NCBI GenBank assembly: GCA_963702475.1
Contig: CAVPCT010000004.1
Span: forward strand, 64,001-128,000
Length of the DNA stretch: 64,000 bases
Direction of reading: 5' to 3'
Origin: an uncultured Thermoleophilia bacterium
Lineage (GTDB): Bacteria > Actinomycetota > Thermoleophilia > UBA2241
In this document: piece by piece, positions 20,483 to 41,853 of the stretch
How positions within the stretch are numbered: position 1 is the first letter of the stretch
How the letters are laid out: each line of letters begins with the position of its first letter
Notes under the pieces: model-generated
What the model saw: only the letters and a program-made list of their open reading frames with translations
Database searches by the model: none
Told to the model about the DNA's origin: nothing
Position numbers and translations under genes: made by a program

Positions 20483-21925
20483 CTACTGCATCAGGGCGGC
20501 GTCCGCGCGCGCGACGACGTCGTTCAGCGCGCGGACCGTGTCCTCCGGCAGGTCGAGCGGAGCCAGACCCTGCCGCAGCTCACGGTATTTCTCGGCGGCG
20601 CGCTCGTAGAGGTCCGGCGCGCCTGCGTTCTGCCACGTGTCGAGCGGGTCGGCCACGAAGATGTCCGGACGCGCGGCTCCGCGGCAGTGCTTCAGCGTGT
20701 GCCGCGCCCGCAGGTAGTTGCCGCCGGCACCGGCGTCCAGGATCGCCTGCACGCCGAGCGTGTCGTCGTCCGCCGTCATCCCCGCGGTGTAGCCGCGCAC
20801 CAGCGCCGTCATGCGGTCGTCGATGATCAGCTGTGGCGGGCTGGCCAGCGTCGAACCACCCAGGCGACCGGCGCCGTACACCACGTCCGCGCCGGCCATC
20901 GCCGTGAACGCCGCGTTCATGCCCTTGGAGAACACCGTCTGGCCGTCCGACACGTACGAGTCGCTCCACAGCGACGCCGTCAGCACCGGCACCTTGAAGG
21001 CTTCGCGCATGAACTGCGCGGCGGCGGACTGCGCGAGCGCCGTCTGCACCGAGCCGAGGCTGGTGTTGCCGGTGCCCATGTCCATCGTCGAGTTGTACGC
21101 GCTCGCGAGGATGGGGTGCCCGGGCGCCAGGATCTGCGTCATCACGAGCATGGCCAACACCTCAACGCCAACCAGCAGGGCCGCGCCGGCCGGGGTGATG
21201 GGGCCGGTCCCTCCGCCCACGACCAGGCTGCACGGCGCCACAGGGATGCCGTACTTGCAGCACAGCTCGATGGTCAGCACGTCCATGTCCTTGAACACCA
21301 GCGGGCTGAGCGATGTCGGGTCGAACCAGGCCAGCGGACGCTCGCGCAGGGCCTCCTCGCTGCCCGCGCGCACGAGGAGCAGCTCGAACAGGTAGGGCAC
21401 GCTCTCCAGGCAGTAGGCGAGCAGGTTGAGGGGCTTGGACGTGTTCTGCAGCTGCACCGCCAGGGCGTGGATGTCGGCCGTCTCGGGCGGCACGTCCATG
21501 GGCGTCTGGATGGCGCACGCATCGATGTTGGGCAGCACCTCGATCAGCCGGCACCACTCGGCCCACGACTCGCACGTGACGTCCCGGAACTCCCCGGTCT
21601 CCGGGTCCAGGTACAGCATGGACTGGATGCAGCTGGAGGTGTAGAAGCCGCCGTCCGGATGCGGAAGCGTCAGGTCGTGGCGCTCGTCGCCGCCCTTCGC
21701 GACGAAGCTCGCCGGCACAGTCTTCAGCGCCGCCTCGATGACGTCACCCGGAATGCGGACCATGCGCGTCGCCTCGTCCACCTCGCAGCCGGCCTCGTGC
21801 AGCCACCCGAAGGCGCTCGGCTGGTCCACCTTCACCCCATGCCGGGAGAGGATCTCCACGCACTTCTCGTAGATGGTGGCGACTTCAGCGCCGGACAGCG
21901 GCTGGATGCTGAGGGGACCGGACAT
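20483..21925 (-). CDS. Trimethylamine methyltransferase (MttB) family protein 1, non-Pyl
   Basis: SPLVF, GGTGPITPAG, MDMGTG; Pyl-equivalent region TASL-W-SDS; 480 aa. Confidence 0.9.
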   Translation of the reverse strand: MSGPLSIQPLSGAEVATIYEKCVEILSRHGVKVDQPSAFGWLHEAGCEVDEATRMVRIPGDVIEAALKTVPASFVAKGGDERHDLTLPHPDGGFYTSSCIQSMLYLDPETGEFRDVTCESWAEWCRLIEVLPNIDACAIQTPMDVPPETADIHALAVQLQNTSKPLNLLAYCLESVPYLFELLLVRAGSEEALRERPLAWFDPTSLSPLVFKDMDVLTIELCCKYGIPVAPCSLVVGGGTGPITPAGAALLVGVEVLAMLVMTQILAPGHPILASAYNSTMDMGTGNTSLGSVQTALAQSAAAQFMREAFKVPVLTASLWSDSYVSDGQTVFSKGMNAAFTAMAGADVVYGAGRLGGSTLASPPQLIIDDRMTALVRGYTAGMTADDDTLGVQAILDAGAGGNYLRARHTLKHCRGAARPDIFVADPLDTWQNAGAPDLYERAAEKYRELRQGLAPLDLPEDTVRALNDVVARADAALMQ

Positions 21926-22051
21926 GGGGACCTCCGGGAGAGCGTTGCCGGCGATGTGGCCGATGAAAAGGTGGCGGCGGCCGGAAGACCCGCTCGTGCC
22001 GACGTTGGGGGGCCGCACGGACTACGCCAGACCGGACCGCCGCGTGATCCC

Positions 22052-22144: not shown

Positions 22145-22540
22145 TCAGGCGGAGTCGTCCGTAGCCAGCAGGCGTCCACGCAGTGCGTCGTCGCCGAGCT
22201 CCTCCGGCGCTTCCGTCAGCGCGGCGTGACTGGAGAGATCGACGCCGGCTGCCAGCGGCGGGCTCGTCCAGCGGTCGACCGGGTCGGCCGAGACGGCGTC
22301 GATGTGGCCGTTGAGGAGCAGGGAGCGGCCGGTGCCCGTCGGTTCGGGCTCCCAGAGATCCGTCTGCGCGCCGACAGCTTCGAGGCGGCGCTTGAGCAAC
22401 TCCTGCAGCTCCGCTCCCTGGCGCGGAGGGTCCCCCACGCTCCGCGCCGTGGTGTCCAGGAGGGCGACCAGCTCCTGCTCACCCTCGCACACGGCGGCCA
22501 CCACGCGCTCCTCGTGCGCCGCCCGCAGCTCCTCGCCCAT
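22145..22540 (-). pseudogene. Truncated, internally deleted ArgE/DapE (M20A) amidohydrolase
   Basis: GTGRSLLLNGHIDAV...WTSPP N-terminal M20 motif only; about 130 aa with a good RBS, and the downstream metal ligands are absent. Confidence 0.75.
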
Positions 22541-22717
22541 GCGTGTCTCCTCCTCCTGGACGTGATGCGGCCGCGGCCCGGACGGGCTGTCATCGAAGCT
22601 CAACATATCTCAGGAAGTGTTCACCCCGGCCTCAGCTTGGGTTCACGAGAGTCTGAGAGGCTCTGCGCGCAGACCGGGCGCCGCGACCGGCGCCATCAGC
22701 GTGAGACGGAGGTCCCG

Positions 22718-23059
22718 ATGCTCACCACCTTCGAAGCACTCGGCAAGGACGGACTGGCTGTCAGCGTCTTCGGCGACCTGTCCCGAAAGGACACAGCCGC
22801 GCTGCAGGAGCGGCTCTTCACCTACGTGGACATGGGCTTCAGGCGCACCTTCGTGGACATGAGTCATTGCCGGCTGCTGGACTGGAGCGGCCTCGACGTG
22901 CTCATCGAGACGGCGCGGCGCGCCGACGGACGCGAGGTCGCGGTCCTCTCGCCCACGCGCGAGCTCCGCAGGATCCTCGAGGCCACAGGCCTCAGCGTCG
23001 CGCTGCCGATCTACACGTCGCGCGACGAGGCGCTGCGGCGCGACCTCGCGGTGGCGTGA
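22718..23059 (+). CDS. STAS domain anti-sigma factor antagonist-like protein
   Basis: VFGDL...VDMSHCRLLDWSGLDVLI...RRILEATGL...IYTSRDEAL; 113 aa; GGAGG RBS. Confidence 0.85.
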   Translation: MLTTFEALGKDGLAVSVFGDLSRKDTAALQERLFTYVDMGFRRTFVDMSHCRLLDWSGLDVLIETARRADGREVAVLSPTRELRRILEATGLSVALPIYTSRDEALRRDLAVA

Positions 23060-23136: not shown

Positions 23137-24651
23137 TCAGTCCGCGAGCGCCGTCAGCAGCGCGCCGCCCCTGACGAGCTCGAGGGCCGCGGCGATGTCG
23201 CCCTCGAGCGGACGGTCCTCGTCGAGGTGCGCGACGCAGCCGCGAAGCAGGCCGTAGGCCCTCGCCGTACGCGGCCCCGGCGCGCAGCCGCGCAGCTCGA
23301 TGCCCTGGCAGGCGCAGAGCAGCTCGATGGCGAGCACCGTCTGCGCGTTCTCGAGGATCTCCGCTGCGTGGCGCGCCGCTATGGTCCCCATGCTGACGTG
23401 ATCCTCCTGGTTGGCGGAGGTCGGGATGGAGTCGACACTGGCCGGGTGCGCCAGCACCTTGTTCTCACTCACGAGCGCGGCCGCCGTGTAGTGGGCGACC
23501 ATGAAGCCGTCGTTCAGGCCGCCGTCGCGGACGAGGAAGGCCGGCAGGCCGCCGCTCAGCGCCGGGTTCACGAGGCGCTCGACGCGGCGCTCCGAGATGC
23601 TCGCCAGCTCGGCGACGGCGATGCCCAGGAAGTCGAGCGCCAAGGCGAGTGGCTGGCCGTGGAAGTTGCCGCCGGAGAGGATGGCCGGAGCCGTCGGGTC
23701 GGGCGCGAAGACGAGCGGGTTGTCCGTGACCGAGTTCAGCTCGGTCTCAAGGACGCCGCGCACGTAGGCGACGGCGTCACGTGAGGCCCCGTGCACCTGC
23801 GGCATGCAGCGCAGGGCGTAGGCGTCCTGGACGCGGCCGTGGGAAGAAGCCAGCACGGCCGGGCTGTCTGCAAGCAGCCTGCGCAGGTTCGCGGCCGTCC
23901 GGATCTGCCCGGCGTGCGGCCGCGTCGCGTGCAGGCGCTCGTCGAACGCATCGGGGACGGCCTCAAGCGCCTCGGCCGTGAGCGCGCCGATCACGTCGGC
24001 GGTGTCGAGCAGGCGCGCCGCGTCGAAGACGGCCAGCGCGCCGAGCGCCGCCATGGCCTGCGTGCCGTTACAGAGCGACAGCCCCTCCTTGGCGGCCAGT
24101 CTGACCGGCGCAATGCCTGCCGCGAGCAGCGCCTCGTCGCCGGCCATCGTGCGGCCGGCGAAGCGCGCGCGGCCCTCGCCCATCAGCACGAGGGCGATGC
24201 GGGCGAGGGGGGCGAGATCGCCGGAGGCGCCCACCGAGCCCTTGCTCGGCACGACGGGCAGCACGCCGCGTTCGAGCATCGCCACCAGCGTCTCGGGGAT
24301 CACCGGACGCACGCCCGAGCACCCGGCGACGAGCGAGTTGGCGCGCAGCAGCAGCATCGCCCGCACGACCTCGTCGGGGAACGGCGGGCCGACGCCGGTA
24401 CAGCAGCTCGTCACCAGGTGACGCTGAAGCAGCTCCACGTCCTCGTCGCCGATGCGCACGCCGGCCAGGCTGCCGAAGCCCGTGTTGACGCCGTACACGG
24501 GCTCGCCGCGCCGCAGGCAGTCCTCGACCACGGCTCGGCTCGCCTCCATTCGCGGATAGCTCTCCGGCGCGATGGTCACCGGCTCGCCGCCGCGCGCCAC
24601 GCGCACGACGTCGTCGATCGACAGACTGCGGCCGTCGAGGCGGACCGTCAC
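23137..24651 (-). CDS. hutH: Histidine ammonia-lyase paralogue with altered specificity loop (Ser-Cys)
   Basis: YGVNTGFG, GSVGASGDLAPL (MIO), QDAYALRC, SGGNFHG, NQEDHVSMG. Has LVTSCCTG instead of LVRSHAxG. Confidence 0.9.
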   Translation of the reverse strand: MTVRLDGRSLSIDDVVRVARGGEPVTIAPESYPRMEASRAVVEDCLRRGEPVYGVNTGFGSLAGVRIGDEDVELLQRHLVTSCCTGVGPPFPDEVVRAMLLLRANSLVAGCSGVRPVIPETLVAMLERGVLPVVPSKGSVGASGDLAPLARIALVLMGEGRARFAGRTMAGDEALLAAGIAPVRLAAKEGLSLCNGTQAMAALGALAVFDAARLLDTADVIGALTAEALEAVPDAFDERLHATRPHAGQIRTAANLRRLLADSPAVLASSHGRVQDAYALRCMPQVHGASRDAVAYVRGVLETELNSVTDNPLVFAPDPTAPAILSGGNFHGQPLALALDFLGIAVAELASISERRVERLVNPALSGGLPAFLVRDGGLNDGFMVAHYTAAALVSENKVLAHPASVDSIPTSANQEDHVSMGTIAARHAAEILENAQTVLAIELLCACQGIELRGCAPGPRTARAYGLLRGCVAHLDEDRPLEGDIAAALELVRGGALLTALAD

Positions 24652-24710: not shown

Positions 24711-25595
24711 TCACACGTTCATCTCGATGGTCTGCGCCATCGAGAACTCGTGGATCTGCAGGTAGTAGCGCACGACCTCCTGGATGGCGCCGAGCGGCAC
24801 GGGGCCGACCAGCTCGGCGCTCGCCACGCTCACGCCGTACCGCCTGGCCTCGGCCCTGATGGCCTCCATCACGCGCGGGATCGGCGTCTGCGTGTAGTTC
24901 GTCAGGTTCATCGACACCTGGATCATTCCGGTGCCGGTGACCTCGAGGCCGATGGCGCGCACGAAGCGGAAGCCGCCGTTGAGGTGGCGTACGGCGTGGG
25001 CGATCTGCGTCGCGATCTGCAGGTCGTCGGTGCGCAGGTTCACGTTGAAGGCGACCAGGGGGAACCGCGCCGACACCTGCGTCGCCCCCGACTTCGGCAC
25101 GAACTCGGCGGGCCCCTCGTCCGGCTTCCAGAAGGGGTCCTTCATCTTCTCGGGGAGCGCCTCGTACTGACCCTCGCGCACGTCCACGAGGTTGCGGCGC
25201 TCGGGACGCGTGGCGGCGTCCTCGTAGTAGTAGACCGGTACGCCGCGGTCCCCCAGCCACTTGCCGAAGTCCTTGGCGACGGCCACGGCCTCTTCGGTCG
25301 TGGTGTCTCCCACCGGGATGAACGGCACGGTGTCGAGAGCTCCGTTGCGCGGGTGCCCGCCGGTGTGCTTCGTCATGTCCACGGCGTCGATGACCGCCGC
25401 GGCGAACACCTTGGTCGCGGCGAGCACAGCGTCGATCTCGCCCAGATACGAGTACACGGAGCGATTGTGGTCGCCGTCGGCGGAGAGGTCGATGAGCTTG
25501 ACTCCGGGCTGGCCGCGGATGACCTCGGCCAGACGGTCGACGGTCGCCTGGTCGCGGCCCTCGCTGACGTTGGGCACGCACATCAGGATCTTCAT
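24711..25595 (-). CDS. ftcD: Glutamate formiminotransferase
   Basis: CVPNVSEGRD, DHNRSV, HPRNGALD, LVAFNVNL, QVSMNL. Confidence 0.95.
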   Translation of the reverse strand: MKILMCVPNVSEGRDQATVDRLAEVIRGQPGVKLIDLSADGDHNRSVYSYLGEIDAVLAATKVFAAAVIDAVDMTKHTGGHPRNGALDTVPFIPVGDTTTEEAVAVAKDFGKWLGDRGVPVYYYEDAATRPERRNLVDVREGQYEALPEKMKDPFWKPDEGPAEFVPKSGATQVSARFPLVAFNVNLRTDDLQIATQIAHAVRHLNGGFRFVRAIGLEVTGTGMIQVSMNLTNYTQTPIPRVMEAIRAEARRYGVSVASAELVGPVPLGAIQEVVRYYLQIHEFSMAQTIEMNV

Positions 25596-25622: not shown

Positions 25623-26222
25623 TCAGCAGCGCCCGCGGAGCTCCTCGGCCTCCCGGAGCAGCGCCACGGCGCGCTCACCTTCCAGCATCGACACGTTGAC
25701 GTCAATATTGCCGGCGCACCCGACGACGCCGGCGCGAGCCAGCTCGAGGGCTACAGCCAGGTCGGAGGCGGCGGCCGCGTTGGACCTGCCGGCGAGCTCG
25801 CGACACAGGTCCAGGACCCGAGCGCAGGCGCCGGCGTTGTCGCGGGGGACCTCGGCGGCGGCGATGAGTGCGTCGTAGATCGCCGCACCGCGAACATCCT
25901 TCTCCTCGTCGGTGGCCTTGGGCAGGGCGTACGCCGACCTGATGAGGCCGTAGGCGGCCGCGTCCTCGGCCGCGCCGGCCGCGAGCTGCTCGCACAGCCG
26001 CGCGGCCTCCGCGGCAACCGACCCGTAGCGCTCGTCGCCGAGGTCGAGGTCCTTGCCGGCGGAGAGGCTGGCCACCATGCCGAGCAGGCCGGCCGCCATG
26101 GCTCCTGCGAAGGCGGCGGCGGAGCCGCCGCCCGTAGTGGCCTCGCCGGCGTCCAGGATGCGGGACAGGACGGGCTGGAGCGAGGCGATCAGTTCGCTGG
26201 GGTGGGTGCTGTCGTCTGGCAT
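25623..26222 (-). CDS. Formiminotetrahydrofolate cyclodeaminase family protein
   Basis: GGGSAAA, AYALPK, AAEVP, SDL, NIDVN. Confidence 0.88.
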   Translation of the reverse strand: MPDDSTHPSELIASLQPVLSRILDAGEATTGGGSAAAFAGAMAAGLLGMVASLSAGKDLDLGDERYGSVAAEAARLCEQLAAGAAEDAAAYGLIRSAYALPKATDEEKDVRGAAIYDALIAAAEVPRDNAGACARVLDLCRELAGRSNAAAASDLAVALELARAGVVGCAGNIDVNVSMLEGERAVALLREAEELRGRC

Positions 26223-26265: not shown

Positions 26266-27564
26266 TCACCGCGTCGTGGCGCGGCCGCGCTCCGCGACCA
26301 GCCGGCCGCGCTTGTAGACCTGCTCGACCACGCTGCTTCCAAGCCGGTACACAGCGTGTTCGTACTGCGGCACGTCCCAGACCTGCACGTCGGCGAGCCT
26401 GCCGGGCGCGAGCACGCCGCGGTCGTCGAGCGCCAAGGCGGCCGCGCCTCCGGCGGTCGCTGCCCACAGCGCTTCACCCGGGCTCATGCGGTACAGCCGG
26501 CAGGCCAAGGCCATCACGAACTGCTGAGACTCGGCCCAGCAGCCGGGGCACAGGTCGGTCGCCAGCGCCAGCGTCATGCCCGCGTCGATGAGAGCCCGGG
26601 CGTCGAACGGCCGCGGGTGGTGCACGGCGAAGTCCAGGGCCGGCATGATCACGCCGATCACGCCGACCTCGGCCATCTTGCGCATGACCTCCGGCGGGGT
26701 GAAGTTGAGGTGATCGGCCGAGACCATCTTCATCTCGGCTGCGAGATCGGTGCCGCCGATGTACGAGTAGGCGTCGGCGTGGATCTTGAGCTTCATGCCG
26801 TGGGCGCGGCCTGCTTCGAGCACGCGCCGCGACTGCTCCTTGTCGTAGTAGCCGTCGTCGGTCCACACGTCGCAGAAGGTCGCGAGGCCTTCGTCCGCGA
26901 CCAGCGGCGTCATCTCCTCGCAGACGATGTCGATGTAGCGCTCGCGCGACACCTCCGGGGCGAAGCCGTGAGCGCCGAGGAACGTCGAGAGCACGTCGAC
27001 GGGCGACTGCTCGTCGAGCGCCTTGTTCACGCGGAGCATGTCGAGCTCGGTGTGCGTGGCGAGGCCGTAGCCGCTCTTGCTCTCCACAGTGGTCGTACCG
27101 GCGGCGAGCATGCCGGTCAGACGCGCCGCCGACTCGCCCAGGAGCTGCTCGAAGGTCGCCGCGCGCGTGCGCTGCACCGTTTCCATCGGGCCGACGCCGA
27201 GGCCGCGGGCGCGAAGCCGCTCGCGGACCTTCTCGACGTCGGGCTCGGTCATCTTCGCCGCGTACTCGTCCACACGCGAGCCGGCGAAGACGAGGTGCGT
27301 GTGGCAATCGACGTAGCCGGGCGCCACGACCTTGCCGGCGCAGTCGACCACGTCGGCGGCGGAGCAGTCGCAGGCCGCCTCGACGGTCGCGCGGCCGCCG
27401 GCCGCCAGGATGGTCTCGCCGGCGACCGCGAGCCAGCCGCCGGCGACGACGTCGACGTCGTACACGTCGCCGGCACAGCGCACGAGCTGCGCCGCGTCCT
27501 TGAAGACGAGGCCGGCCTGCGGGCGGGGGGAAGCGCCCGCGGGCCGGCTGTGGTCAGCATCCAT
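26266..27564 (-). CDS. hutI: Imidazolonepropionase-like amidohydrolase (divergent)
   Basis: DCHTHLVFAGSR, GTTTVESKSGYGL, TFLGAH, KIHAD, SADHL, ATD. Confidence 0.9.
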   Translation of the reverse strand: MDADHSRPAGASPRPQAGLVFKDAAQLVRCAGDVYDVDVVAGGWLAVAGETILAAGGRATVEAACDCSAADVVDCAGKVVAPGYVDCHTHLVFAGSRVDEYAAKMTEPDVEKVRERLRARGLGVGPMETVQRTRAATFEQLLGESAARLTGMLAAGTTTVESKSGYGLATHTELDMLRVNKALDEQSPVDVLSTFLGAHGFAPEVSRERYIDIVCEEMTPLVADEGLATFCDVWTDDGYYDKEQSRRVLEAGRAHGMKLKIHADAYSYIGGTDLAAEMKMVSADHLNFTPPEVMRKMAEVGVIGVIMPALDFAVHHPRPFDARALIDAGMTLALATDLCPGCWAESQQFVMALACRLYRMSPGEALWAATAGGAAALALDDRGVLAPGRLADVQVWDVPQYEHAVYRLGSSVVEQVYKRGRLVAERGRATTR

Positions 27565-27629
27565 TGTCATCCTCAACGTTGACGTCCGCTAGGGACGGCG
27601 ACGGCCCGGGCCGCGCTCAACTACGTCGT

Positions 27630-29347
27630 TCATTCCTTCAGGTCCCGCGGCCCGAAGGTCGCTTTGGGCGTCCACCACAGCGGCACCTTGATGCCTTCGT
27701 CGGTCAGCGGGCCCTGGCCGTTGGCCACGTCCCTGGCCGCCTGGTAGCCGGCCTGCGCATGGCGGATGACGCCGATGCCGGAGTCCACCGTGAGCGACAC
27801 CGACAGACGCAGGTCGGCCTCGTCGGTGCCGTCCGCGATCATCGTGACGCCGGTATGGACGGCCTCGCCCATCGAGTAGTTGGCCTGGCCGGCGATGAGG
27901 TCGGCCATGCCGCAGGAGTTCAGCAGGCCGTTCAGCACCGGCCAGTCGCTGATGAGGTCGCCGCCGTCGGCCATGTTCTCGGACTCGAACGTCGGGTTCA
28001 CAATGCTGCCGGAGTCGAGATTGTCGCGCGAGAACGCGACCGGGCCCTTCACCTCGCCCTTGCGGATGAGGTCGTTCACGGCCAGACCGAACTTCTTGCG
28101 CTGGCCGAAGCCCAGATAGCAGATGCGCGCCGGCAGGGCCTCGATGGGGATGTGCTCGCGCGCCAGCGTGATCCAGCGCGTCACCAGCAGGTCGTCGGCG
28201 AACAGCTCGAGGCACAGGTCGTCGAGCCGTGCCAGGTCGCTCGCCTCGCCGCTCACGCAGGTCCAGCGGAACGGGCCACGGCCTTCGCAGAAGAGCGGCC
28301 GGATGTACTCGCTCACGAAGCCGGGGATCGTCATGGCCTCGGCCTCGGGCATGCCGGCGTCGCGGCACTCCTTGCGGATGCTGGTGCCGTACTCGAACGT
28401 CGGCACCCCGGCCGCGAAAAACCTGTTCATCACGCGAAGCTGGGCCGTCATCGTCTCCCGCGCGCGCCGCAGGTACTCCTCGCGGTGCTCCACGCGCAGC
28501 ACGTCGGCCTCCTGTGGCGTCAGGCCGGCCGGGATGTACGAGATGGGGTCGTGGCAGGGGCACATCTCGGTGACGATGTCCGGGCCGGAAGCCCTTGTCG
28601 TAGGCCTCGGAGAACAGCTCCGCTGCGTTGCCGACCACGGCGATGCCGAGCGGCTTGCTTTTCGGCGGCGGTCTTCCTCGCCAGTTCGATGGCCTCGTCC
28701 AGCGAGCCGACCTTGCAGTCGATGAATCTCTTCTCGATGCGACGGTCGATCACGCGCTCGTCTGCGTCCACCACGATGCCCACGCCGCCGTGCATCGTCA
28801 TGGCGCGCGTCTGGTTGCCGCCCATGCCGCCGGCGCCGGCCGTCAGCAGGATGCGCCCCACGAGCGAGTCGTCGTAGCACTTGCGAGCGATGGCGGAGAA
28901 CGTCTCGAACGTCCCCTGGATCACGCCCTGCGTGCCGATGTACTCCCACGGCCCGGCGGTGTATTGCGCGAACATCGTGAGGTTCTTGTCCTGCAGGTCG
29001 TAGAAGATCGGCCACGTCGCCTTCATGATGTTGGTGTTGGCCATCACCACGCGCGGGGCGAGCCTGTGCGTCTCGAAGACGGCCACCGGCATGCCCGACT
29101 GCACCACCAGGGTCTCGTCGTCCTCGAGCTCCTTGAGCGCGTTGACGATGGCCCAGTACGACTCCCAGTTGCGCGCGCACTTGCCGATACCGCCGTAGAT
29201 GACGAGCTCCTCCGGCTTCTCGGCGTTCTCCATGTTGTTCTCGAGCATGCGCAGGATGGTCTCCTGCTTCCAGCCCTTGCAGCGGAGCGTCGGACCGCGC
29301 TGGGCCTTCACGGAGTAGAGGATCTCGGGCTTGGAGGAGTCGGCCAT
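27630..29347 (-). CDS. hutU: Urocanate hydratase family protein (divergent), apparent frameshifts near 28660 and 28585
   Basis: YGGIGKCARNW, QSGMPV, YIGTQG, GAGGMGG, FEYG, GRGPFRW, LPARIC, RHAQAGY across three frames. Confidence 0.92.
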
Positions 29348-29496: not shown

Positions 29497-29647
29497 CGGT
29501 TTTTGCGTCCGGCAGGGCGGACACGGGCCTCGCACAGCGCCGATGGGTCGCTTACAGTCCAGTATGATGGTCGCGGCGCCGGCGCGCGCAGCGCCGGACC
29601 CCGCGCAAAGCAAGGCGCGCCAATCGCGGTCAACCGACGAGGTGACG

Positions 29648-30529
29648 ATGCTCACGCACGACGACAGCGACGAGACGACCACGCCCGGTGGCGTGCCCGC
29701 GCGCTCGGCCGACCGCGCCTTCGACATCCTCGAGTACCTCAGCCGGCGCACGCAACCCGCCTCGTCCGGGACCATAGGCCTCGAGTGCGGCATCCCCAAG
29801 TCGAGCCTGCACAACCTCCTCAAGCTGATGAAGAAGCGGCGGCTCGTGACGCACCACCCGTACGACAAGACGTGGAGCCTGGGGCCGAGGGTATCGGAGC
29901 TCACCCCGGAGGCTCCTCTGCTCGTGCACGCGCTCGCCGTGCTGCGATCGTTCTCGGGCAGCGCCGGCGCGCTCACCGTCCGCGACATCTCCCAGCGCTC
30001 GGACCTGCCCCAGAACGTGGTGCAGCGCATCGTCCCCGTCATGCAGGAGGCCGATCTGCTGTGGGTCCAGCCCGACGGCAGCTACCGTCTCGGGCTGGAG
30101 CTCTTCAGCCTGGCGGCGCAGGTCGCCTGGGTGGACCGCCTGCGCGTGCTGTCGCGCCCCGTGCTCACGCAGTTGCGCGACTCCACCCGCGAGACCGCGA
30201 ACCTGGCCGTGATGGACGGCGACCAGGCCATCTACGTGGAGCAGGTCGAGAGCCGCCAGGCCCTGCGGTACGGCGGCTGGCTGGGGCGCCGCATCCCCAT
30301 CGAGGGCACCGCACTGGGCGCCGCCCTGCGCGACCCCGGCCGGGTCCACACCAAGGACGGCGCGGTCGAGGAGGGCGTCATGGCCATCGCCTGCGGCATC
30401 GAGGGCACCTTTCCGCCCGCCGCCGTGAGCCTGCTCGCCCCCAGCTGGCGCATCGAGCGCTGGGGCCTCGACTCCGCCGGCCGCCTCGTGGCCGCTTCGG
30501 CCCGGCAGCTCGCCGAGCTGCTGACCTGA
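29648..30529 (+). CDS. IclR family regulator with two tandem HTH domains
   Basis: HTH1 SADRAFDILE...PKSSLHNLL...WSLG; HTH2 ALAVLRSF...PQNVVQRIV...YRLG; then ETANL, GRRIP..TALG effector domain. Confidence 0.88.
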   Translation: MLTHDDSDETTTPGGVPARSADRAFDILEYLSRRTQPASSGTIGLECGIPKSSLHNLLKLMKKRRLVTHHPYDKTWSLGPRVSELTPEAPLLVHALAVLRSFSGSAGALTVRDISQRSDLPQNVVQRIVPVMQEADLLWVQPDGSYRLGLELFSLAAQVAWVDRLRVLSRPVLTQLRDSTRETANLAVMDGDQAIYVEQVESRQALRYGGWLGRRIPIEGTALGAALRDPGRVHTKDGAVEEGVMAIACGIEGTFPPAAVSLLAPSWRIERWGLDSAGRLVAASARQLAELLT

Positions 30530-30592: not shown

Positions 30593-31962
30593 CTAGGACG
30601 TGACGCGGACGGCGAGCCGCTCGAAGAACGCGGCCTGGAGCCGCAGGTCCTCGACGGCAATGCGCTCGTCCACCCCGTGCAGGCGCGGCGCCACATCACG
30701 GAAGTCCTCGCGCACGAACGGGCAGACGCCGTAGGCGACCGCGCCGGGCCACGCGGCGCGCACGTGCGCGGAGTCGGTGAACCAGGAGCCGAGCTCGGCG
30801 ACCATGCGCGCGCCCGGAACGACCTCGCCCAGCGCCGCGACGATGGCGTCGTACAGCTCACCGGCGGGCTCGGAGCGGTTGCCGGACGTGACCTCGCAAG
30901 AAAGCACCGACCAGTCGGCCGCGACGCCGTCGAGCGCGCGGCCGAGCTCGCGGCGGACGTCGTCCTCCGTCTGCCCCGGCAACACGCGGCAGTCCACGTG
31001 GATCTCGGCCGCCGGCGGGATCACGTTGACGGCGTCGCCCTCGGTGCGCACCACCGTCACGACGAAGGTCAGGCCGAGCAATGGCTCGATGATGGCGGCA
31101 AGCCGCTCGTCGGTGAGCGCCAGCTCGCGCACGGCGCGCTGCGCCGTGGCCGGATCCTTGAGACGCTCGCGAAGGCCCTCGTCCTGCACGGTCAGGTCGA
31201 TGAGCGCCGCGGGGATCGACTCCTCCCGCACCTCGGGCTCGTAGGCGTCGAGGGCGGTGAGGACCTCGGCGAGGCCGCTCACCGCGTTGCCCCGGCGCTG
31301 CGGCATGGAACCGTGCGCGGCGCGGCCGGACACGCGCACCCTGGTGTTCGCGTACCCCTTCTCACCGGCGTGGAGGACGTACAGGGGTCCGCCGGGGGCC
31401 TGGGGCATGCTCCAGCCGCCCTCGTTGACGGCGAAGTCGGCGCGAAGCAGGCTGGGGTGGCTGTCGGAGCAGCCAGCGGGCGCCACAACGCAGCGCCGGT
31501 CTCCTCGTCGGCGGTGGCCGCGAAGACGAGGTCGCCGCGCGGCGGCCGCGCGGCGGCGGCGCGAAGCGCCACGCGCGCGAAGGCGACCGCCTGCGCCGCC
31601 AGCTGGTGCTTCATGTCCAGGGCGCCGCGACCCCACACGTAGCCGTCACGGACGCGGCCGGCGAACGGCGCCTCCTGCCAGCCCTCAGGCGCCGCCGGGA
31701 CGACGTCCAGATGCCCGAGCAGGAGCAGAGAGCGCCCGCCCCCGCTGCCGTGCAGGCGGGCGACCAGGTTGCCGACCTCGGGCGCCTCGCCGACGACCTG
31801 TGCCTCGACGCCGTTGGCGGCGAAGAAGTCCGTGAGCACGGCGAGCGCCGGGCGCACGTCGCCCGGCGGGTTGCTCGTGTCGGCGCGGATCAGGCGCGCA
31901 AGCAGGCCGACGACAGCGTCGGGGTCGTCGGCCCGCAGAGGAAACCCGGTCGTCGCGTCCAC
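30593..31962 (-). CDS. M20/M25/M40 family metallo-amidohydrolase/peptidase, apparent frameshift(s) near 31480-31495
   Basis: GHLDVV, WGRGALDMK, ADEE, NEGG, GEKG, AHGS, NVIP, TD, HGVDERI. Confidence 0.88.
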
Positions 31963-31976: not shown

Positions 31977-32610
31977 TCAGCCGGCGCGCACCAGCTCCTG
32001 CACCGCCGGCCAGATGCGCTCCATGATGCCGGCCGTCTCCGCGGTGATCTCGGCGGCGCGCGTCAGGAGCCCGTGCCGCGCCGCCTCGTCCTTGAGCGAC
32101 GGCACGTTGATCTCCACGTTGAGGACGCCGCCGGCGACGCCGGAGGCGGCCATCTGCACGGCCACGCCCAGGTCGCTGGCCGCGGCCGTGTTGAAGCCGA
32201 CGGACACGGTCTCGGCGAGGCGTAGCAGCTTGAGACACGACTCCGCCGTGGCCAGCGGCACGTCGGCGGCGGTACGGATGGCGACCTGGATCTGCGCCGC
32301 GCGCGCCGCCTTCTCGTCGTCGGTCTCCTTGGGCATGCGGAACGCGTCCACCACCCCGAGATAGGCGTCGGTATCGCGGTCGACGGCGGCCAAGAGGCCG
32401 GCGCGCAGCTTGTCCGCGGCTGCGAGCGAGTCGCGCAGGACGGGCTCGCGTTCCTCGAGCTCCGCCTTGCCGACGCTGAGCTTGCAGACCATGGCCACGA
32501 GGCCGGCGGCCATGCCGCCGGCGGCCGCGGCCACGCTGCCGCCGCCGGGGGCGGGCGAGTCGGACGCGAGCTCGGCGGCGAAGCCGGTGAGGGTCAGGTC
32601 AGATGAGCAT
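31977..32610 (-). CDS. Second cyclodeaminase/cyclohydrolase family protein, +1 indel just after the start
   Basis: GGAGGAG RBS and ATG 32610; ASDSPAPGGGSVAA, AFRMPK, SDLGV, NVEIN. The ORF track fuses it artefactually to larA. Confidence 0.88.
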
Positions 32611-32743
32611 GTGCTCCTCCGGGTCTCGATTCGGGTTGACCAGCGGCGCACCGGCACGGGGCCGGGACGGGGGCCGAGTGAGTCGTGCCCGGCCGCCCGC
32701 GGCGCCGCCCGGCCGGGCGGCGCCGCGGGCGGCCGGGCAGCGC

Positions 32744-34050
32744 TCATCCTACGACGGGCAGACAGTCGCCGCCGTACGGCAGCAGGCCGATCGTGCCACC
32801 GGGCTGCAGCTGCAGGGCCCGGTCGACGGCGGCCTGCAGGTCGATGTGGCGCTCGTAGCCCAGCAACTCGCACATCGTCGTCGGACAGGCCGTCGCTCAC
32901 CAGCAGGATCGCGGCCTTCTCGCGGATCTTGGCGTTGTCCACGCCCAGATCCGCGGCGATGACGTCGATCTCCCGGTCGCTGGGGTCGGCGGCCTTCACC
33001 AGCTCGATGCCGTGGGCGAACGTCTGCTGCAGCCAGAACCGAAGCCTGGGGTGGTTGTGCTCGAGGCCCTCGGGGCACGGCGAAGCGAACACGATGACGC
33101 CGCCTTCCTTCACCGCGAAGTACGCGGCGATGAGGCCCTTCTCGCCCTGCCACCACTCGATGTCGGCCGGATACGAGCTCACGATGACGATGTCGGCCGG
33201 CTCCGGCACACGGACGCCCCAGGCACGCCGGGACACCTCGACGCCGGCGCGGTGCGCCTCCACGCAGTCCCCCGCGACGATCTCCACGATCTTGTGGTAC
33301 GGGTCCTGAACGACGTTGACGATGAACGCCAGGCCGACGATGCGCGCGACCTCTTCCATACCGCGGCGGCAGGGTGTGTCCACCTCGCCCAGCGGGATCT
33401 CCGGCAGCACGGTGGCCGTGACGTGCGTGGCGGCGGTGGTCGCGAACCCGCAGACGCCCGGCTGGACGATCTTGGCGCCGCCGGCGTACCCGGCGCCGCA
33501 GTGCGGGATGATGTTGCCGAGCCCGATGAGGAGGTCGGCATCCATGGCGGTGCGGTTCACCTGCACGGGGATGGTGTAGCCCTCGCCGGCGCTGATCGCG
33601 CCGAGGTCCACGAGCTGGTCCTCGTCGTTGAAGTCGTGCTGCGAGATGTGCACGCGGCCGAGGGCCTCCTCGCCCACTTTGGCCAGGATCTCGTCGTCGG
33701 TCATCAGCCGATGCGTGCCGGGCGCGGTGAGGATCTCGATGTGGTCGTCGGTCACGCCGGCGGCGTTCAGCTCGTCGAACAGCACCGGCAGGATGCGGTG
33801 GACCGGGGTCGTGCGCGTAGCGTCCTCGACCAGGACGACGACCTTGAGCTTGCCCGCCGCGAGCTCCGCGAGCGGCGGCGTGCCGATGGGGGCGCGGAGC
33901 CGCGCTCGCAGCGTGGCGGCGAAGTCCTCGATCTCCGGCAGCTCCTCCATCTCGCCGGTGAAGACGATGCTGCCGGCCGGGACCTCGGCCGAGACCGTCC
34001 GGCGCTTCGCCGTACGGGAGCTCGATGACGGTGCGTTCGTCCGCGACCAT
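32744..34050 (-). CDS. Nickel-pincer dependent lactate racemase (LarA) family racemase/epimerase, apparent frameshifts near 34005 and 32865
   Basis: IELPYG, PIGTPPL, EDATR, GTHR, PHCGAGYAGGAKIVQPG, CPEG, LLPYGG. Confidence 0.88.
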
Positions 34051-34060
34051 GCCTGAGGCC

Positions 34061-34507
34061 TCAGGCGCCGGCGGGCGCAGCCGCCCCGGCGCCGCCTTTG
34101 GTCACCGTGATCGTCCCGGCGGTCGCGTCGACCCTGACGGCGTCACCGTTCTCGAGAGCCTCGTAGAAGCCCTCTTCGACCTCGTCCACCAGCGGGATCT
34201 CCATGGCGATGATGGTGGAGACGATCACCGGCTCCGGCCGCTCCAGCACCACGGCGGCCGGCGCGACGTTGTTGATGATCAGGCGATACAGGCCGTCGGC
34301 CTGGACGACCGAGCTGCCTTTGCCCGTCGGCATCACGAGCACCCGGCCTGCGACGCTCTGGCAATCGAGCGCGTGGCCCTTCTCGATGACCGTGCCGGTG
34401 GTCGGGTCGCAGAGCGCGAAGCAGAGGGCGTCCTTCGACAGCAACGCGGAGCCTTCGCCGGCGCCCTCGGAGATGCAGCGGCAGGAGAAGGTGAGCTGCT
34501 CGGCCAT
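34061..34507 (-). CDS. Aconitase X swivel (small) subunit, DUF126
   Basis: GTVIEKGH, PTGKGSS, IPLVD; its start overlaps the stop of the large subunit. Confidence 0.9.
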   Translation of the reverse strand: MAEQLTFSCRCISEGAGEGSALLSKDALCFALCDPTTGTVIEKGHALDCQSVAGRVLVMPTGKGSSVVQADGLYRLIINNVAPAAVVLERPEPVIVSTIIAMEIPLVDEVEEGFYEALENGDAVRVDATAGTITVTKGGAGAAAPAGA

Positions 34508-35721
34508 CAGTGGACCTCCCCGGCGATGGCGGCTTCGACGGCCTGCATCAGCGGCCGCACCGCATAGTCCTGTCCGTACACCTGGCAGTAGAAGGCGCAC
34601 TTCTGCGACTCGGTGACGCCGGGCCTGCCGTAGTAGATGTCCCAGCAGCCGGGCACGTCCATGCAGGTGTCGGGCAGGACGTGCCCGCCGGCGCGCTGGA
34701 TCGTCGCCAGGTGGCCCATGCGGTCGGCGAGCTCCAGCGTCAGGCTGCTGACCAGGAGCCAGGTGTCCACCGCGAAGCGGCGGCCCTGGAGCTGCTCGGC
34801 GATCTCGCCGATCTGGCGGATGGTGAGGTGCGGGCAGCCGAACATGGCGTACTCGATCGGCCCCGGCGTGCCGGCGAACTGCTCGCGCACGCGCTCGAGG
34901 TCGGCCTGCGTGATCTTCACAGTCGCCTTGGGAGCCTTGCCGCCGAGGGCCGTGTCCACATCCGGGGCCTCGGGAGTGATGCCGGCGATGTGGTACATGG
35001 CGACGGAGCCGGACGTCGCCAACTCGGCGCCGAACTGCACGAAGCCCTCCGGTGTGGCGCGCTTCGTGATGCCGGTGAACACCGGCACCTCGCCGCCCTT
35101 GTACACCTGCGGGTAGGCGTAGCCGAGCAGGTGCCAGTCGAAGTCCTCCTCGACCTTGGCCTCGACCTCCACGACGACCTCGGCCAGGCGGTTCTCGTCG
35201 AGCAGGAACCCGTACTCGGGCACCCGGCCGGTCACGGCCGCGCACAGCGCGCTGATGGACGACTCGCGGTTGCTGCGCGCGCCGAGCACGGAGTTCACGT
35301 ACGGCGTGGCGCTCGACTCCGAGAAGGCGACGATCTCGCCGAAAGCCGGCACGTTCTTCTCGATCTCCGGCGTGCAGCTCAGCGTCATGATTGCGCCGAT
35401 CCTGCGGTACGCAGCGTTGCTCTTCGTCACGTTGTCGAGGCCGAACTGGTCCATCGCCCAGAGGTGGTCGGAGACGTAGTCCAAGTCCATGCTCGGGTTC
35501 GTCGTGGGCGGGACGATGCAGCGCGCGCCGCCGTCCACCAGCTTGGTCACGAAGTAGATGTCGCCCTGCTGGGCGCTGGCCGCGACATGCGCCCGGGTGA
35601 TGGGCACCATGCGCTTGGCGTAGAAGGCGCGGCCGGTTCCGACCTGCACCTTCATGGCGAGGGCCATGCCCTCCCCGTACTTGCCGTCGAGCATCTCCTG
35701 CTCGAAGGTCGTCAACTCCAT
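34507..35721 (-). CDS. Aconitase X catalytic (large) subunit, DUF521
   Basis: SCTP, SESSA, NSVLGARSNRE, YHIAGITPEA, GCPH, DTC. Confidence 0.92.
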   Translation of the reverse strand: MELTTFEQEMLDGKYGEGMALAMKVQVGTGRAFYAKRMVPITRAHVAASAQQGDIYFVTKLVDGGARCIVPPTTNPSMDLDYVSDHLWAMDQFGLDNVTKSNAAYRRIGAIMTLSCTPEIEKNVPAFGEIVAFSESSATPYVNSVLGARSNRESSISALCAAVTGRVPEYGFLLDENRLAEVVVEVEAKVEEDFDWHLLGYAYPQVYKGGEVPVFTGITKRATPEGFVQFGAELATSGSVAMYHIAGITPEAPDVDTALGGKAPKATVKITQADLERVREQFAGTPGPIEYAMFGCPHLTIRQIGEIAEQLQGRRFAVDTWLLVSSLTLELADRMGHLATIQRAGGHVLPDTCMDVPGCWDIYYGRPGVTESQKCAFYCQVYGQDYAVRPLMQAVEAAIAGEVH

Positions 35722-35734
35722 AGGAGCTCCCTTC

Positions 35735-36685
35735 TCAGGCGGGAGGGGCGGCCACGTTGCACGGCTTTCCCTCGATGAAGCGCACGGCATTGTCGGTGCA
35801 GGCGGCAGCCAGCCTCGTGCTGGCCTCGCCGGTGTTGAACCCGATGTGGGGGGTGAGGACCACGTTCTCCAGCGTGAAGAAGCCGGCGGCGCTGGGGTCG
35901 GCCAGATCGAAGACGTCCAAGCCGGCGCCGGCGATGCTCCCGCAGGCGAGCGCCTCGTACAGGGCGGCCTGGCGGACAAGACCGGCTCTCGCCGTGTTGA
36001 CGAGCACGCCGTGCCCGGGCATGCGCGCCAGGAGTGGCGCGTCGACCATGTCCCGTGTCTCAGCCGTCAGCGGCGCGTGCAGGCTGACCAGGTCGCTGTC
36101 GGCGAACAGCCGGTTCAGCGGCAGATACGTCGCTCCGGTCTCGGCCACGAGGGCGTCCGAGCGGACGACGTCGTGGGCAAGGATCGTCATGCCGAACGCG
36201 TGACCCAGCGTGGCGACGCGCCGGCCGATGGCGCCGGTGCCGACCACGCCGAGCGTGCTGCCGCACAACTCGCCGCCGCGGAACCGATCCCAGTCGCGCT
36301 CGCGCCTGTCGCGAAAGAAGCGGTCGGCGGCCGCGACCTTGCGCTTGACGGCGAGCATGAGCCCGAGGGCGAGCTCCGCGACGGCGTTGGTGGCGTACTC
36401 GGGCACACGGCAGACGACCACGCCGCGCCGCGCCGCCGTCTCAACGTCCACCGTGTCGACACCCGTAGCCGCCAGAGAGATCATGCGCAGCCGCGGCAGC
36501 CGCTCGAGGGCGGGCGCGTCCATCCGTGCCCAGCAGCACAGCACGACCTCGGCGTCGCCCGCCCGCTCGACCAGCTCGTCGTCGTCGCGAGGAACGCCCT
36601 CGTAGACGCGCACGTCACCGAGTGCCGAGAGACGCGCGAGGTTCTCGTGGCCGAGGTCGAAGTCGTCGAGGACGACGATGCGCAT
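35735..36685 (-). CDS. D-2-hydroxyacid dehydrogenase (glycerate/phosphoglycerate dehydrogenase-like)
   Basis: GVVGTGAIG, LHAPL, NTARAG, LDVF, TPHIG. Confidence 0.93.
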   Translation of the reverse strand: MRIVVLDDFDLGHENLARLSALGDVRVYEGVPRDDDELVERAGDAEVVLCCWARMDAPALERLPRLRMISLAATGVDTVDVETAARRGVVVCRVPEYATNAVAELALGLMLAVKRKVAAADRFFRDRRERDWDRFRGGELCGSTLGVVGTGAIGRRVATLGHAFGMTILAHDVVRSDALVAETGATYLPLNRLFADSDLVSLHAPLTAETRDMVDAPLLARMPGHGVLVNTARAGLVRQAALYEALACGSIAGAGLDVFDLADPSAAGFFTLENVVLTPHIGFNTGEASTRLAAACTDNAVRFIEGKPCNVAAPPA

Positions 36686-36791
36686 GGGCACAGCTCCGGA
36701 TCGCGGTGGTGGCGCGGCGCGCCCTGGCGTCGCCGCAGTGCATCGCCCATCATGAACGCGGCGGGGGAGGGGTCAACCGGCGGCCTCTCGC

Positions 36792-36811
36792 CCGTCCACG
36801 CACGTGGACGG
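36792..36811. promoter_or_regulatory. Perfect palindrome between divergent promoters
   Basis: CCGTCCACG-CA-CGTGGACGG, flanked by minus-strand TTGACC (36771-36776) and plus-strand TTGACG-N16-TATGCT (36830-36857). Confidence 0.6.
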
Positions 36812-36981
36812 AAAAGGAGCGCGTACCGATTGACGACCGCGCCACGGGGGCTATGCTGTCCGCAGACCGGCTCCGTGCCTCGGGACCCTGCTCACGGGCC
36901 CCCGCCCGGGCCCCTCGCCGGGGGGTCAGGGCCACGCGGACGCCGCCTATCGCCTTTCCCCTCGCCCCGACTGGAGGACAC

Positions 36982-38397
36982 ATGCCTGCCTATCGCCTGC
37001 GCACCACGGCTCTCGACGAGGAGGGGTGCGCCGCCGTCCACGCGGCGACCGTCGAGATCCTCGAGAAGACCGGCGTGGAGGTGCGGCACGACGGCGCCCT
37101 GCGGCTGCTGAGCGACGCCGGCGCGCAGGTGGACGGCACGCGCGTGCGCATCCCGGCGGCGCTCGTGGACGACGCCCTCGCCGCCGCGCCGCGCACCGTT
37201 ACCATGGCCTCGCGCGGCGAGACCGGCGCGCTCGCGCTGAAGGCCGGTCCCGTCTACTACGGCTCCGGCTCCGACTGCCTCGTCTGTCTGGGGCCGCACA
37301 CCCGCGAACGCCGCATGGTCTCACTCGACGACGTGGAGCAGATGGCCGCTCTCCAGGAGCACCTGCCCAACACCGACTTCGTGATGAGCATGGCGCACCC
37401 GCACGAACTGCCGGCCTCGTTCGCCCCAGCCGCGCAGTTCGCGGCCATGCTGCGCGGCACGTCCAAGCCGCTCATCATGGTGCCGGAGGTGGCCGCGGAC
37501 ATCGACCTGTTCCACGAGATGGCGGCCGTGTGCGGCTCCGCCGGCAGCTGGGCGCTGTACGCCATGCCCACGCCGCCGCTGGTGCACGGCGAGCACTCGG
37601 CGGCACGCCTCATCCGCTGCGCGGAGCTGGGCGTGCCGATGGTGTACGCCTCGGCGACGCTGCAGGGAGCGACCGGGCCCGCGTCGCGCGCCGGGCAGAT
37701 CGTGCAGACCAACGCCGAGATGCTGAGCGGCCTTGTGGTCAGCGAGCTCGCTGTGCCGGGCGCCCCGTTCGTGTACGGCGTCGCCCAGGGCGCCATGAAC
37801 CCGCGCACGGCGCACGTCGTCTACTGCGCGCCGGAGAGCATGGCCGTCCAACAGGCCTCCGCCGACCTGGCCGGCTTTTACGGCCTGCCCACATTCGGCT
37901 ACGGCGGCTGCTCTGACTCGCTCGCGCTCGACGAGCAGTGGGCCTTCGAGGCGGGTATGACGCTGCTCACCGCGGCACAGGCCGGTGTCACCCTGCTGCA
38001 CGACATCGGCTACGTGGCGTCGGGCACGGCCTCGTCCTACGAGACCATGGTCGTGCTGGACGAGCTCGTCGGCTGGGTGAAGGCGTACCTCGACGGCGTG
38101 ACCATCGACCCCGAGGCTCTGGCGCTGGAGGAGATCGACGCCGTGGGCCCGGGCGGGAGTCACCTGTCGCGCAAGTACTCCCGCCGGCACCTGCGCGACT
38201 ACGTAGCGCCACGCCTGATCTCGCAGGACCAGTACGACGCATGGCAGGCACGCGGCGGCGACACCCTGCTCGACCGCACCGCCGAGAGAACACGCGAGCT
38301 GCGTGAGGCGCCGCGGGCGTATGAGCTCGGCGAGGACGCGGCGGCGGCGCTGGACGCGCTGGTGGAGAAAGCGCGGACGGCGGCGCTGGGCAGCTGA
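36982..38397 (+). CDS. MttB family methyltransferase 2, non-Pyl
   Basis: YGSGSDC, PTPPL, GATGP, LLHDIGY; Pyl-equivalent region GYGG-C-SDS. Confidence 0.92.
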   Translation: MPAYRLRTTALDEEGCAAVHAATVEILEKTGVEVRHDGALRLLSDAGAQVDGTRVRIPAALVDDALAAAPRTVTMASRGETGALALKAGPVYYGSGSDCLVCLGPHTRERRMVSLDDVEQMAALQEHLPNTDFVMSMAHPHELPASFAPAAQFAAMLRGTSKPLIMVPEVAADIDLFHEMAAVCGSAGSWALYAMPTPPLVHGEHSAARLIRCAELGVPMVYASATLQGATGPASRAGQIVQTNAEMLSGLVVSELAVPGAPFVYGVAQGAMNPRTAHVVYCAPESMAVQQASADLAGFYGLPTFGYGGCSDSLALDEQWAFEAGMTLLTAAQAGVTLLHDIGYVASGTASSYETMVVLDELVGWVKAYLDGVTIDPEALALEEIDAVGPGGSHLSRKYSRRHLRDYVAPRLISQDQYDAWQARGGDTLLDRTAERTRELREAPRAYELGEDAAAALDALVEKARTAALGS

Positions 38398-40061: not shown

Positions 40062-40310
40062 CGTCACTCCCTTCGCATCGCCGCCGAGGCCTCTCTACCC
40101 GCGGGTCTGCCCCGCCACGGCGTCCTCCTCGCCCACTCCGAGCACGTCGCGACAGTATCGCACGCCCTCCTCCAACGCGGCCTCCGCGGCGGCGAGAGCT
40201 GTGCCCATGTCAGCGAAGGGGATATCGGGAACGCTGAGGCGGAGCAGCACGGTCACTGCCGCCGGGTCGTGTGCGGCGGGGGAGGGGCTCGCGCCCGCGC
40301 CCGCCGACCG

Positions 40311-41726: not shown

Positions 41727-41798
41727 GGGGGTCCTTTCGGTCGGCGGCGCCGAGCGGCGCGGGAGCGCCGCAGAGGCGCCGGCGGGGGAGGGGGCACC

Positions 41799-41842
41799 GG
41801 CCGGGGGGAGGGAGCCGTAGTACGCGCTCCCTCCCCCCGGCC
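41799..41842 (-). terminator. Hairpin after the substrate-binding protein gene
   Basis: GGCCGGGGGGAGGGAGC...GCTCCCTCCCCCCGGCC, a 17-bp stem. Confidence 0.65.
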
Positions 41843-41853
41843 CAGCGGTCATG

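Follow-up and report, generated by a model that had tools for sequence, protein, structure and literature searches.

Which compound is degraded by a second set of histidine-utilisation (hut)-like genes in a bacterium that also holds the canonical ones? The question is raised by a stretch of 64,000 nucleotides (contig CAVPCT010000004.1, positions 64,001 to 128,000) from an uncultured Thermoleophilia bacterium, which is called the window here. Its G+C content is about 70%. Five tightly spaced genes run on its minus strand from 29347 to 23137 in the order hutU'-hutI'-fchA'-ftcD'-hutH'. A first-pass annotation, made from the letters of the DNA, had proposed that the whole operon was retuned to a substituted imidazole, with the substituent left unnamed, and that it ended in a tetrahydrofolate (THF)-dependent formimino transfer. 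On the observed gene content, orthology, signature residues and co-existing canonical genes, we read the operon as a paralogous hut-like pathway for N-tau-methyl-L-histidine with a folate-dependent ending, and give this reading a probability of about 0.62. Orthology points to N-tau-methyl as the unnamed substituent.

The first-pass annotation had named five unusual strings in HutU' (MFAQYTAGPWEY, EMCPCHD, RDNLD, NPTFESE, and QANYSMG) and three in HutI' (GVGPMET, HADAY, and DLCPG). All of them were found in the minus-strand translation, at positions that fit the reading frames of the two genes (Table 1). The typical motifs that had been quoted for comparison agreed with alignments to two solved urocanases (1x87 and 2fkn) and one solved HutI (2bb0). 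When HutU' of the window was compared with the two urocanases, it was found to lack the canonical motifs MYGQMTAGSW, DQTSAHD, RDHLD, SPxRETE, and HGGGVG. An intact hutU' orthologue of 573 amino acids from a genome of the same genus (G007), named P0004, served as the query for the searches, and the window pieces of hutU' are 91–94% identical to it. Such orthologues, with identities of 88–96%, were present in 5 of 36 genomes of the genus, and four of them were intact with all of the odd motifs.

The closest solved relatives of P0004 were ordinary urocanases with roughly 50% identity, which is enough to establish its fold. In a protein collection clustered at 90%, the best 120 matches were all 76–93% identical and came from Thermoleophilia/Actinomycetota metagenome-assembled genomes (MAGs) and from many Bacillota. 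In a library of 50% representatives, there was one full-length representative at 62% identity (786 bits), and the next full-length ones dropped to 43–45%. The hydratases therefore stand apart as a cluster of their own. Scanning species-representative genomes gave 339 relatives, and the locus counts in this study rest on the best 76 of the 339. These 76 loci come from Actinomycetota, Bacillota, Chloroflexota, Desulfobacterota, Spirochaetota, Alphaproteobacteria, a Brocadiaceae MAG and a Thermoplasmata MAG, that is, from at least eight phyla. Identity within the clade was 64–99% with a median of 73% (73 sequences), in contrast to 41–51% against six canonical HutU proteins of the same class. Fifty-three positions were fixed differently between the clade and canonical HutU. 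The loop changes of the clade are QTSAH to M(C/T)P(C/A/G)H, RDHLD to RDNLD, SPxRETE to NPTFESE, and HGGVG (HGGGVG) to QANYSM. The signature loops RDNLD, NPTFESE, Q[AVS]NYSMG, M-x-P-x-H, and AxYTA are all present in the window translation. The set of 73 sequences was chosen by the presence of NPTFESE, so a count of this motif in it would be circular. The unbiased count was taken from open reading frames (ORFs) of the related loci picked independently of motifs, and RDNLD and NPTFESE appeared in 72 of these 74, the remaining two being canonical HutU genes in the flanks. Therefore, the motif differences of HutU' are not due to chance.

To our knowledge, bacterial degradation of N-tau-methylhistidine has so far been described for a single route, that of soil bacilli, which has N-methylformamide as its end product. 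Beliaeva, Atac and Seebeck reportedly described, in ACS Chem Biol in 2022, how Bacillus terrae converts N-tau-methylhistidine into glutamate and N-methylformamide by hut-like enzymes. The corresponding locus (L129) of the type strain, Siminovitchia (Bacillus) terrae LMG 29736, was fetched in a second scan. P0004 and the S. terrae hydratase (L129:7001-8722) were 78% identical over 564 residues with zero gaps. The latter is probably the characterised N-tau-methylurocanate hydratase. In addition, a relative from Crassaminicella thermophila (77%) carries the UniRef name N(tele)-methylurocanate hydratase. By close orthology to the S. terrae enzyme, HutU' is thus a probable member of the N(tele)-methylurocanate hydratase clade. 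The 78% match and the named 77% relative place the hydratase/HutI pair within a pathway that has been described before, which lowers its novelty; this pair belongs to an already described enzyme family. A preprint on Shewanella N-pi-methylurocanate reductases had no bearing on the operon.

The likeness to S. terrae extends to the linked genes. The S. terrae hydratase has the RDNLD, NPTFESE, and QANYSMG loops of HutU' in common with the window, its linked HutI carries HADAY and DLCP as HutI' does, and its linked histidine ammonia-lyase (HAL) is of the 4-methylideneimidazole-5-one (MIO) type and lacks His83 like the lyase of the window. The order at L129 is a sigma-54 activator, the hydratase, a Gate-domain transporter, the HutI-like gene, an M20-family hydrolase, a transporter of the Na+/H+-antiporter family, and HAL. 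The clusters of Neobacillus and Sporosarcina contain the same enzymes. On the other hand, where the S. terrae cluster has the M20-family hydrolase, two transporters, and the sigma-54 activator, the window has FtcD', an FTCD_C protein, and an IclR regulator. The motif of the NAD loop is MCPCH in HutU' and MTPAH in the S. terrae hydratase, and residue 83 of the lyase is Cys in the window and Asp in S. terrae.

Two other specialised identities were tried and rejected for the hydratase. On the models for thiourocanate hydratase and S-methyl-thiourocanate hydratase (NCBIfam NF058530 and NF058531), P0004 scored 594.2 bits, far under the cut-off of 930, and 641.9 bits, far under 880, respectively; the separation from both enzymes rests on these NCBIfam cut-offs. 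The thio- and S-methylthio-urocanate hydratases of ergothioneine catabolism belong to the same urocanase fold family as HutU'. We take PDB 7ned and 8q9u/8q9v to be these enzymes, which are named only 'urocanate hydratase' in the structure listing. In the alignment, 7ned and HutU' remodel the same loops; for example, the Arg of SPxRETE is replaced by a hydrophobic residue in 7ned. Ergothioneine catabolism uses ergothionase, whereas the lyase of the window operon contains MIO instead.

The enzymes linked to the hydratase, which together with it are called the module here, have changed as well. A HutI gene is linked in 70 of the 76 loci and HAL in 55. When HutI' of the window was aligned to 2bb0, its DCHTH, the His of HADAY, and the Asp of TDLCPG matched, so that the metal-ligand motifs (HxH, H, and D) are kept. 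The Glu after HAD and the Asn of DxNPG are absent from HutI' and are replaced by Ala (HADAY) and Cys (DLCPG), and its GxGxxxxT loop is longer. Among the linked HutI genes, the position of the Glu in HADE of B. subtilis HutI was Ala in 67/68 (Gly in the other one), and that of the Asn in DxNPG was Cys in 67/68. Canonical HutI genes in the same data set, in which L093 duplicates L020, had Glu or Gln plus Asn in 5/5 cases and the signature in 0/5. Nothing useful was found in the literature on Glu252 of HutI.

His83 of Pseudomonas putida HAL is known from mutagenesis to be involved in imidazole binding. In the alignment to this enzyme (1gkm), the equivalent of His83 was not found in HutH', and Cys occupies the position. 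Five misaligned ORFs were dropped. Of the 50 HAL ORFs from the loci that could be aligned, 48 had a residue other than His at this position, namely Cys (31 ORFs), Asp (16 ORFs, without exception from Bacillales), or Ser (1 ORF). The two ORFs bearing His were the second HAL of the window and one adjoining a canonical HutI. A tree of 51 rows was made with other HALs from five of the genomes added. Five Bacillales rows were retained in it, and two more, of which one is an identical duplicate, came in with the extra genomes. Residue 83 was Cys, Asp, or Ser in 42/42 module rows and His in 9/9 others. The module HALs fell into three groups with good support, of which one was the sister group of the canonical HALs of Bacillales, in a tree with weak deep branches and long-branch warnings. 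The topology suggests, and does not prove, that HAL was recruited repeatedly with convergent loss of His83.

Canonical hut genes are present in the same genome (G000). A canonical hutU, which the first-pass annotation had advised looking for, was found at G000:C4:130316-131960, 2.3 kb past the end of the window, with 571 + 368 bits (about 939) on the hutU model; it is likewise broken by one frameshift. A canonical hutH lies in the window, retains His83, is 51% identical to HutH', and adjoins MttB genes, and a canonical hutI was found on another contig. In this genome, canonical HutI and FtcD do not follow hutH, unlike in its relatives. Three of five other genomes tested also contained a canonical HutU (912–954 bits) beside the clade member (642–652 bits). 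HutU' is a paralogue and not a replacement. THF-dependent histidine utilisation also occurs in mammals and some anaerobes. The canonical THF-dependent cluster of the genus (HutH-HutU-HutI-FtcD; L093 and L095) carries out the same four reaction types in the same order of chemistry with FtcD as the fourth. Its proteins share 43–45% (HutU), 40% (HutI), 38% (FtcD), and 51–52% (HAL) identity with those of the operon and retain His83, HADE, and DxNPG, and no cyclodeaminase adjoins the cluster.

The ending of the pathway probably differs from that of the bacilli. The described hydrolytic pathway has an M20 hydrolase as its fourth enzyme; none was found in the operon, and FtcD' and FchA' stand in its place. 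An FtcD like that of the window was present in 36 of the 76 loci and in 0 of 22 Bacillales isolates, whereas the M20 hydrolase of the Bacillales was present in 18 loci, all from Bacillales. The two were found together in 0/76 loci. Neither was found in 22/76, many of which are on short contigs. A tblastn search with the Bacillales-type M20 hydrolase gave 0/54 non-Bacillales loci, a set outside which the window stood. The two M20 fragments of the window (22145-22609 and 30593-31645) were considered as remnants of the Bacillales hydrolase and rejected since they had no similarity to it. Among the best-matching loci, the FtcD type is the commonest form outside Bacillales (36/54, from Actinomycetota, Bacillota MAGs, Chloroflexota, Desulfobacterota, and Spirochaetota), and an FTCD_C gene was linked in 36/76 loci, mostly those with FtcD. 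The 37 module FtcDs were 53–100% mutually identical across phyla and 38–46% identical to the FtcD of the canonical cluster of the genus. FtcD' thus moves together with the module. As an enzyme type, however, FtcD is not confined to the module within this genus; it was present in 31 of 36 genus genomes, and the canonical cluster of the relatives is HutU ... HAL2-HutI-FtcD. In terms of gene content, the THF-dependent ending of the first-pass annotation holds, as a glutamate formimidoyltransferase and a cyclodeaminase-family gene are part of the operon. This ending would act on a methylated intermediate.

By orthology to the Bacillus/Siminovitchia terrae pathway, the first three steps are predicted as follows. 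At first, HutH', an MIO lyase with His83 replaced by Cys, would remove ammonia to give N-tau-methylurocanate. Second, the NAD+-dependent HutU' with its remodelled loops would hydrate N-tau-methylurocanate to N-methyl-imidazolone-propionate. Third, HutI', in which Ala replaces Glu and Cys replaces Asn next to the metal ligands, would open the ring to N-(N'-methylformimidoyl)-L-glutamate. When the ring of an N-tau-methyl imidazolone is opened, the terminal nitrogen of the formimidoyl group should retain the methyl. This placement is what the known regiochemistry of the hut pathway dictates, and it fits the reported product N-methylformamide. Chemistry and gene linkage suggest two further steps. 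FtcD' may move the methylformimidoyl group to N5 of tetrahydrofolate and free glutamate, and the FTCD_C protein may then cyclise the product to 5,10-methenyl-THF and free methylamine.

More tentatively, at a little under even odds, N-tau-methylhistidine has a second, so far uncharacterised route in the module of the FtcD type, in which a dedicated FtcD and cyclodeaminase take an N-methylated formimidoyl group and for which the lyase was recruited repeatedly with convergent loss of His83. If this is true, the carbon is kept as 5,10-methenyl-THF, and methylamine instead of N-methylformamide comes out. In Thermoleophilia, a syntenic corrinoid methyltransferase of the MttB type may feed or complement such a pathway. 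N-tau-methylhistidine is released where actin, myosin, and other methylated proteins decay. With a working folate ending, many anaerobic and soil lineages would salvage the carbon of the ring as a one-carbon unit on folate and give off methylamine, and the known substrate range of formimidoyltransferase and cyclodeaminase would be wider. The proposed folate-dependent ending, its breadth across phyla, and the convergent change of HAL, all drawn from comparative evidence, appear to be undescribed as far as could be checked. Current models label the genes of the clade 'urocanate hydratase', 'imidazolonepropionase', and 'histidine ammonia-lyase'. The signatures (HAL His83 to Cys/Asp, HutI Glu to Ala plus Asn to Cys, and the HutU loops) would let annotators split the clade from ordinary hut genes.

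Several results weigh against the assignment to N-tau-methylhistidine with a folate ending. P0004 scored 642.2 bits on the TIGR01228 hutU equivalog with a cut-off of 375, and HutU' thus clears the canonical model. The generic FtcD model gave FtcD' 384 bits, above the 322–333 bits of the canonical-linked FtcDs of the genus, so there is no sign that FtcD' was retuned. The claim that the operon was retuned is supported overall, by lineage-wide changes of substrate-facing motifs in HAL, HutU, and HutI. Furthermore, no second FtcD and no HutG or HutF over the cut-off were found in the genome, of which 6% is missing. Unless the missing part holds another FtcD, FtcD' might also, or only, serve ordinary formiminoglutamate. 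The lyase residue 83 is Cys outside Bacillales and Asp in Bacillales, so the substrate need not be identical across both types. Finally, hutU' is frameshifted in the sole assembly of the strain, and contigs identical to the window, possibly from the same strain, miss both sites.

The difference at residue 83, with the lyases of the FtcD and M20 types in separate clades, is the starting point for an alternative which we consider unlikely, namely that the FtcD-type module acts on another substituted imidazole amino acid than the Bacillales module. The candidates would be N-pi-methylhistidine or the product of demethylation of a quaternary histidine derivative by MttB. In 6 of 10 Actinomycetota loci, an MttB orthologue (60–74% identity) is syntenic with the module, and in two loci (L017 and L018) MttB comes immediately after FtcD and the flanks lack HAL. 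The best solved relatives of this MttB were methyltransferases for trimethylamine (168 bits) and glycine betaine (123 bits). However, MttB genes are dense, with six in the window and three per 19 kb in the relatives, so that part of the adjacency is expected by chance. The hydratases of both types are moreover 76–83% identical with identical RDNLD, NPTFESE, and QANYSMG loops, and the HxDAY plus DxCP signature of HutI' is common to both types.

The reading frame of hutU' is split, a feature absent from the first-pass annotation. An uninterrupted frame was not found in this assembly. The gene is spread over three frames, an N-terminal piece of about 233 residues, a middle piece of about 25 residues (KPLGIAVVGNAAELFSEAYDKGFRP), and a C-terminal piece of 316 residues. 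Compared with 7 orthologues, the window has exactly two surplus bases, in GCCGCCGAAAAG (~28659-28665) and CGGCCCGG (28584-28586), and these two +1 shifts account for the three frames. That hutU' is a real pseudogene in a decaying operon is somewhat less probable than a change of substrate. In its favour, the two frameshifts fall inside 80 bases, and hutH' is separated from MttB by the insertion of a STAS gene and the remnant of an M20 gene. Logan contigs identical to the window end at 28558/28569 and restart at 28662/28737, so neither site is covered. A short-read contig of one relative (31 differences in 494 bases) is without one base at 28585 and one at 28659 and only repeats the orthologue comparison. 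Against decay, no further lesions were found, all motifs are kept, and the remaining four operon genes are each in a single frame. Both insertions sit in short G/C or A runs. Among 28 genes compared with close relatives, 5 were split over frames (six shifts in about 37 kb), the canonical hutU included, and rpoC was intact. Since other genes are split at this rate, the shifts in hutU' are by far best read as consensus errors of the assembly and not as decay.

The least probable alternative is a second ordinary histidine-utilisation operon with the normal THF ending of the genus, in which HutU' hydrates urocanate: the canonical models for HutU, HutI, and HAL are all passed, and FtcD is usual in the canonical clusters of the genus and has no substitute in G000, but a canonical HutU co-exists in the genome, the 53 differently fixed positions include loops altered in other specialised hydratases, the Glu to Ala change of HutI' and the His83 loss of the lyase are conserved across phyla, and the nearest named relative is an N-methylurocanate hydratase.

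Table 1. Coordinates of the operon and of other features of the window.
Feature	Position	Strand	Basis and remarks
hutU', urocanase paralogue, predicted N(tele)-methylurocanate-hydratase type	27630..29347	-	Pfam Urocanase_N, Rossmann, and C domains split across two ORFs; NCBIfam hutU 280.5 + 319.2 bits (two pieces); start ATG at 29347, GAAAGGGG upstream
hutI', imidazolonepropionase paralogue	26266..27570 (frame 27576/27564 to 26266)	-	TIGR01224 357.7 bits, cut-off 298; start candidates 27570 and 27564
fchA'-like FTCD_C domain protein, putative formimidoyl-THF cyclodeaminase	25623..26222	-	Pfam FTCD_C 128.5 bits; NCBIfam FchA equivalog 107.5 bits only, cut-off 275; start ATG at 26222, GGAGG upstream
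ftcD', glutamate formimidoyltransferase	24711..25595	-	TIGR02024 384 bits, cut-off 221
hutH', MIO-type histidine ammonia-lyase paralogue	23137..24651	-	NF006871 695.7 bits, cut-off 524; GASGDL (MIO Ala-Ser-Gly triad) present; His83 equivalent is Cys in LVTSCCTG
IclR-family regulator, divergent from the operon	29543..30529	+	Pfam HTH_IclR and IclR_C
Non-Pyl MttB-family methyltransferase, possibly operon-associated	20483..21925 (20483-22021 as one of six MttB-family genes)	-	Pfam MTTB 221 bits
N-terminal M20 deacylase remnant	22145-22609	-	
STAS-domain gene	22718-23059	+	
M20 gene	30602-31914	-	One frameshift near 31480
MttB-family gene	36526-38397		
Third aromatic-lyase homologue	38640-40094	-	GASDL in place of the Ala-Ser-Gly MIO triad
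MttB-family gene, non-Pyl	40311-41966	-	
Aldehyde:ferredoxin oxidoreductase homologue, tungsten type	48068-50146	-	
MttB-family gene	50681-52393		
MttB-family gene	56717-58207		
MttB-family gene	58116-59189		
Canonical hutH	59643-61190	-	

The IclR regulator was 69% identical to the regulator at the same position in L020 and 49–50% identical to those in L021 and L023. A separate M20 gene adjoins it in the window. Between hutH' and MttB, where the relatives L019 and L020 have a gap of only about 190 bases, the window has the M20 deacylase remnant and the STAS-domain gene. Three Actinomycetota MAG loci (L046, L058, and L060) carry the clade hydratase and HutI and then, or nearby, a lyase 36–37% identical to HutH'. 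Neither FtcD nor M20 was found in the flanks of these loci, and they may represent a third form of the module. In another family of the same class, a very divergent urocanase homologue (27–30% identity to the C-terminal part) was observed in three genomes (G039:C4:5238-8080, G044:C13:102462-106024, and G059:C75:19727-22561), each less than 2 kb from a high-scoring FtcD (392–427 bits).

A protein in which an N-terminal domain of the LarA type (nickel-pincer racemase) is fused to FTCD_C has an aconitase-X family protein and a D-2-hydroxyacid dehydrogenase as neighbours (31977-34142, 34507-36066, and 35735-36772, all on the minus strand). The top solved relative of the third aromatic-lyase homologue was ergothionase 6s7j (158.9 bits), above HAL. 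It adjoins a non-Pyl MttB-family gene, and the two may be a methyltransferase and a trimethylammonia-lyase that work as a pair, with ergothioneine or histidine betaine as the substrate of the lyase. An MttB gene lies close to each of the three HAL-like lyases of the window, and the genome gave 43 matches to the B12-binding domain. The organism appears to be heavily invested in corrinoid-dependent demethylation. The right end of the window carries pyruvate:ferredoxin oxidoreductase and succinyl-CoA-ligase-like genes, which together with the tungsten-type oxidoreductase homologue hint at an anaerobic or microaerobic lifestyle.

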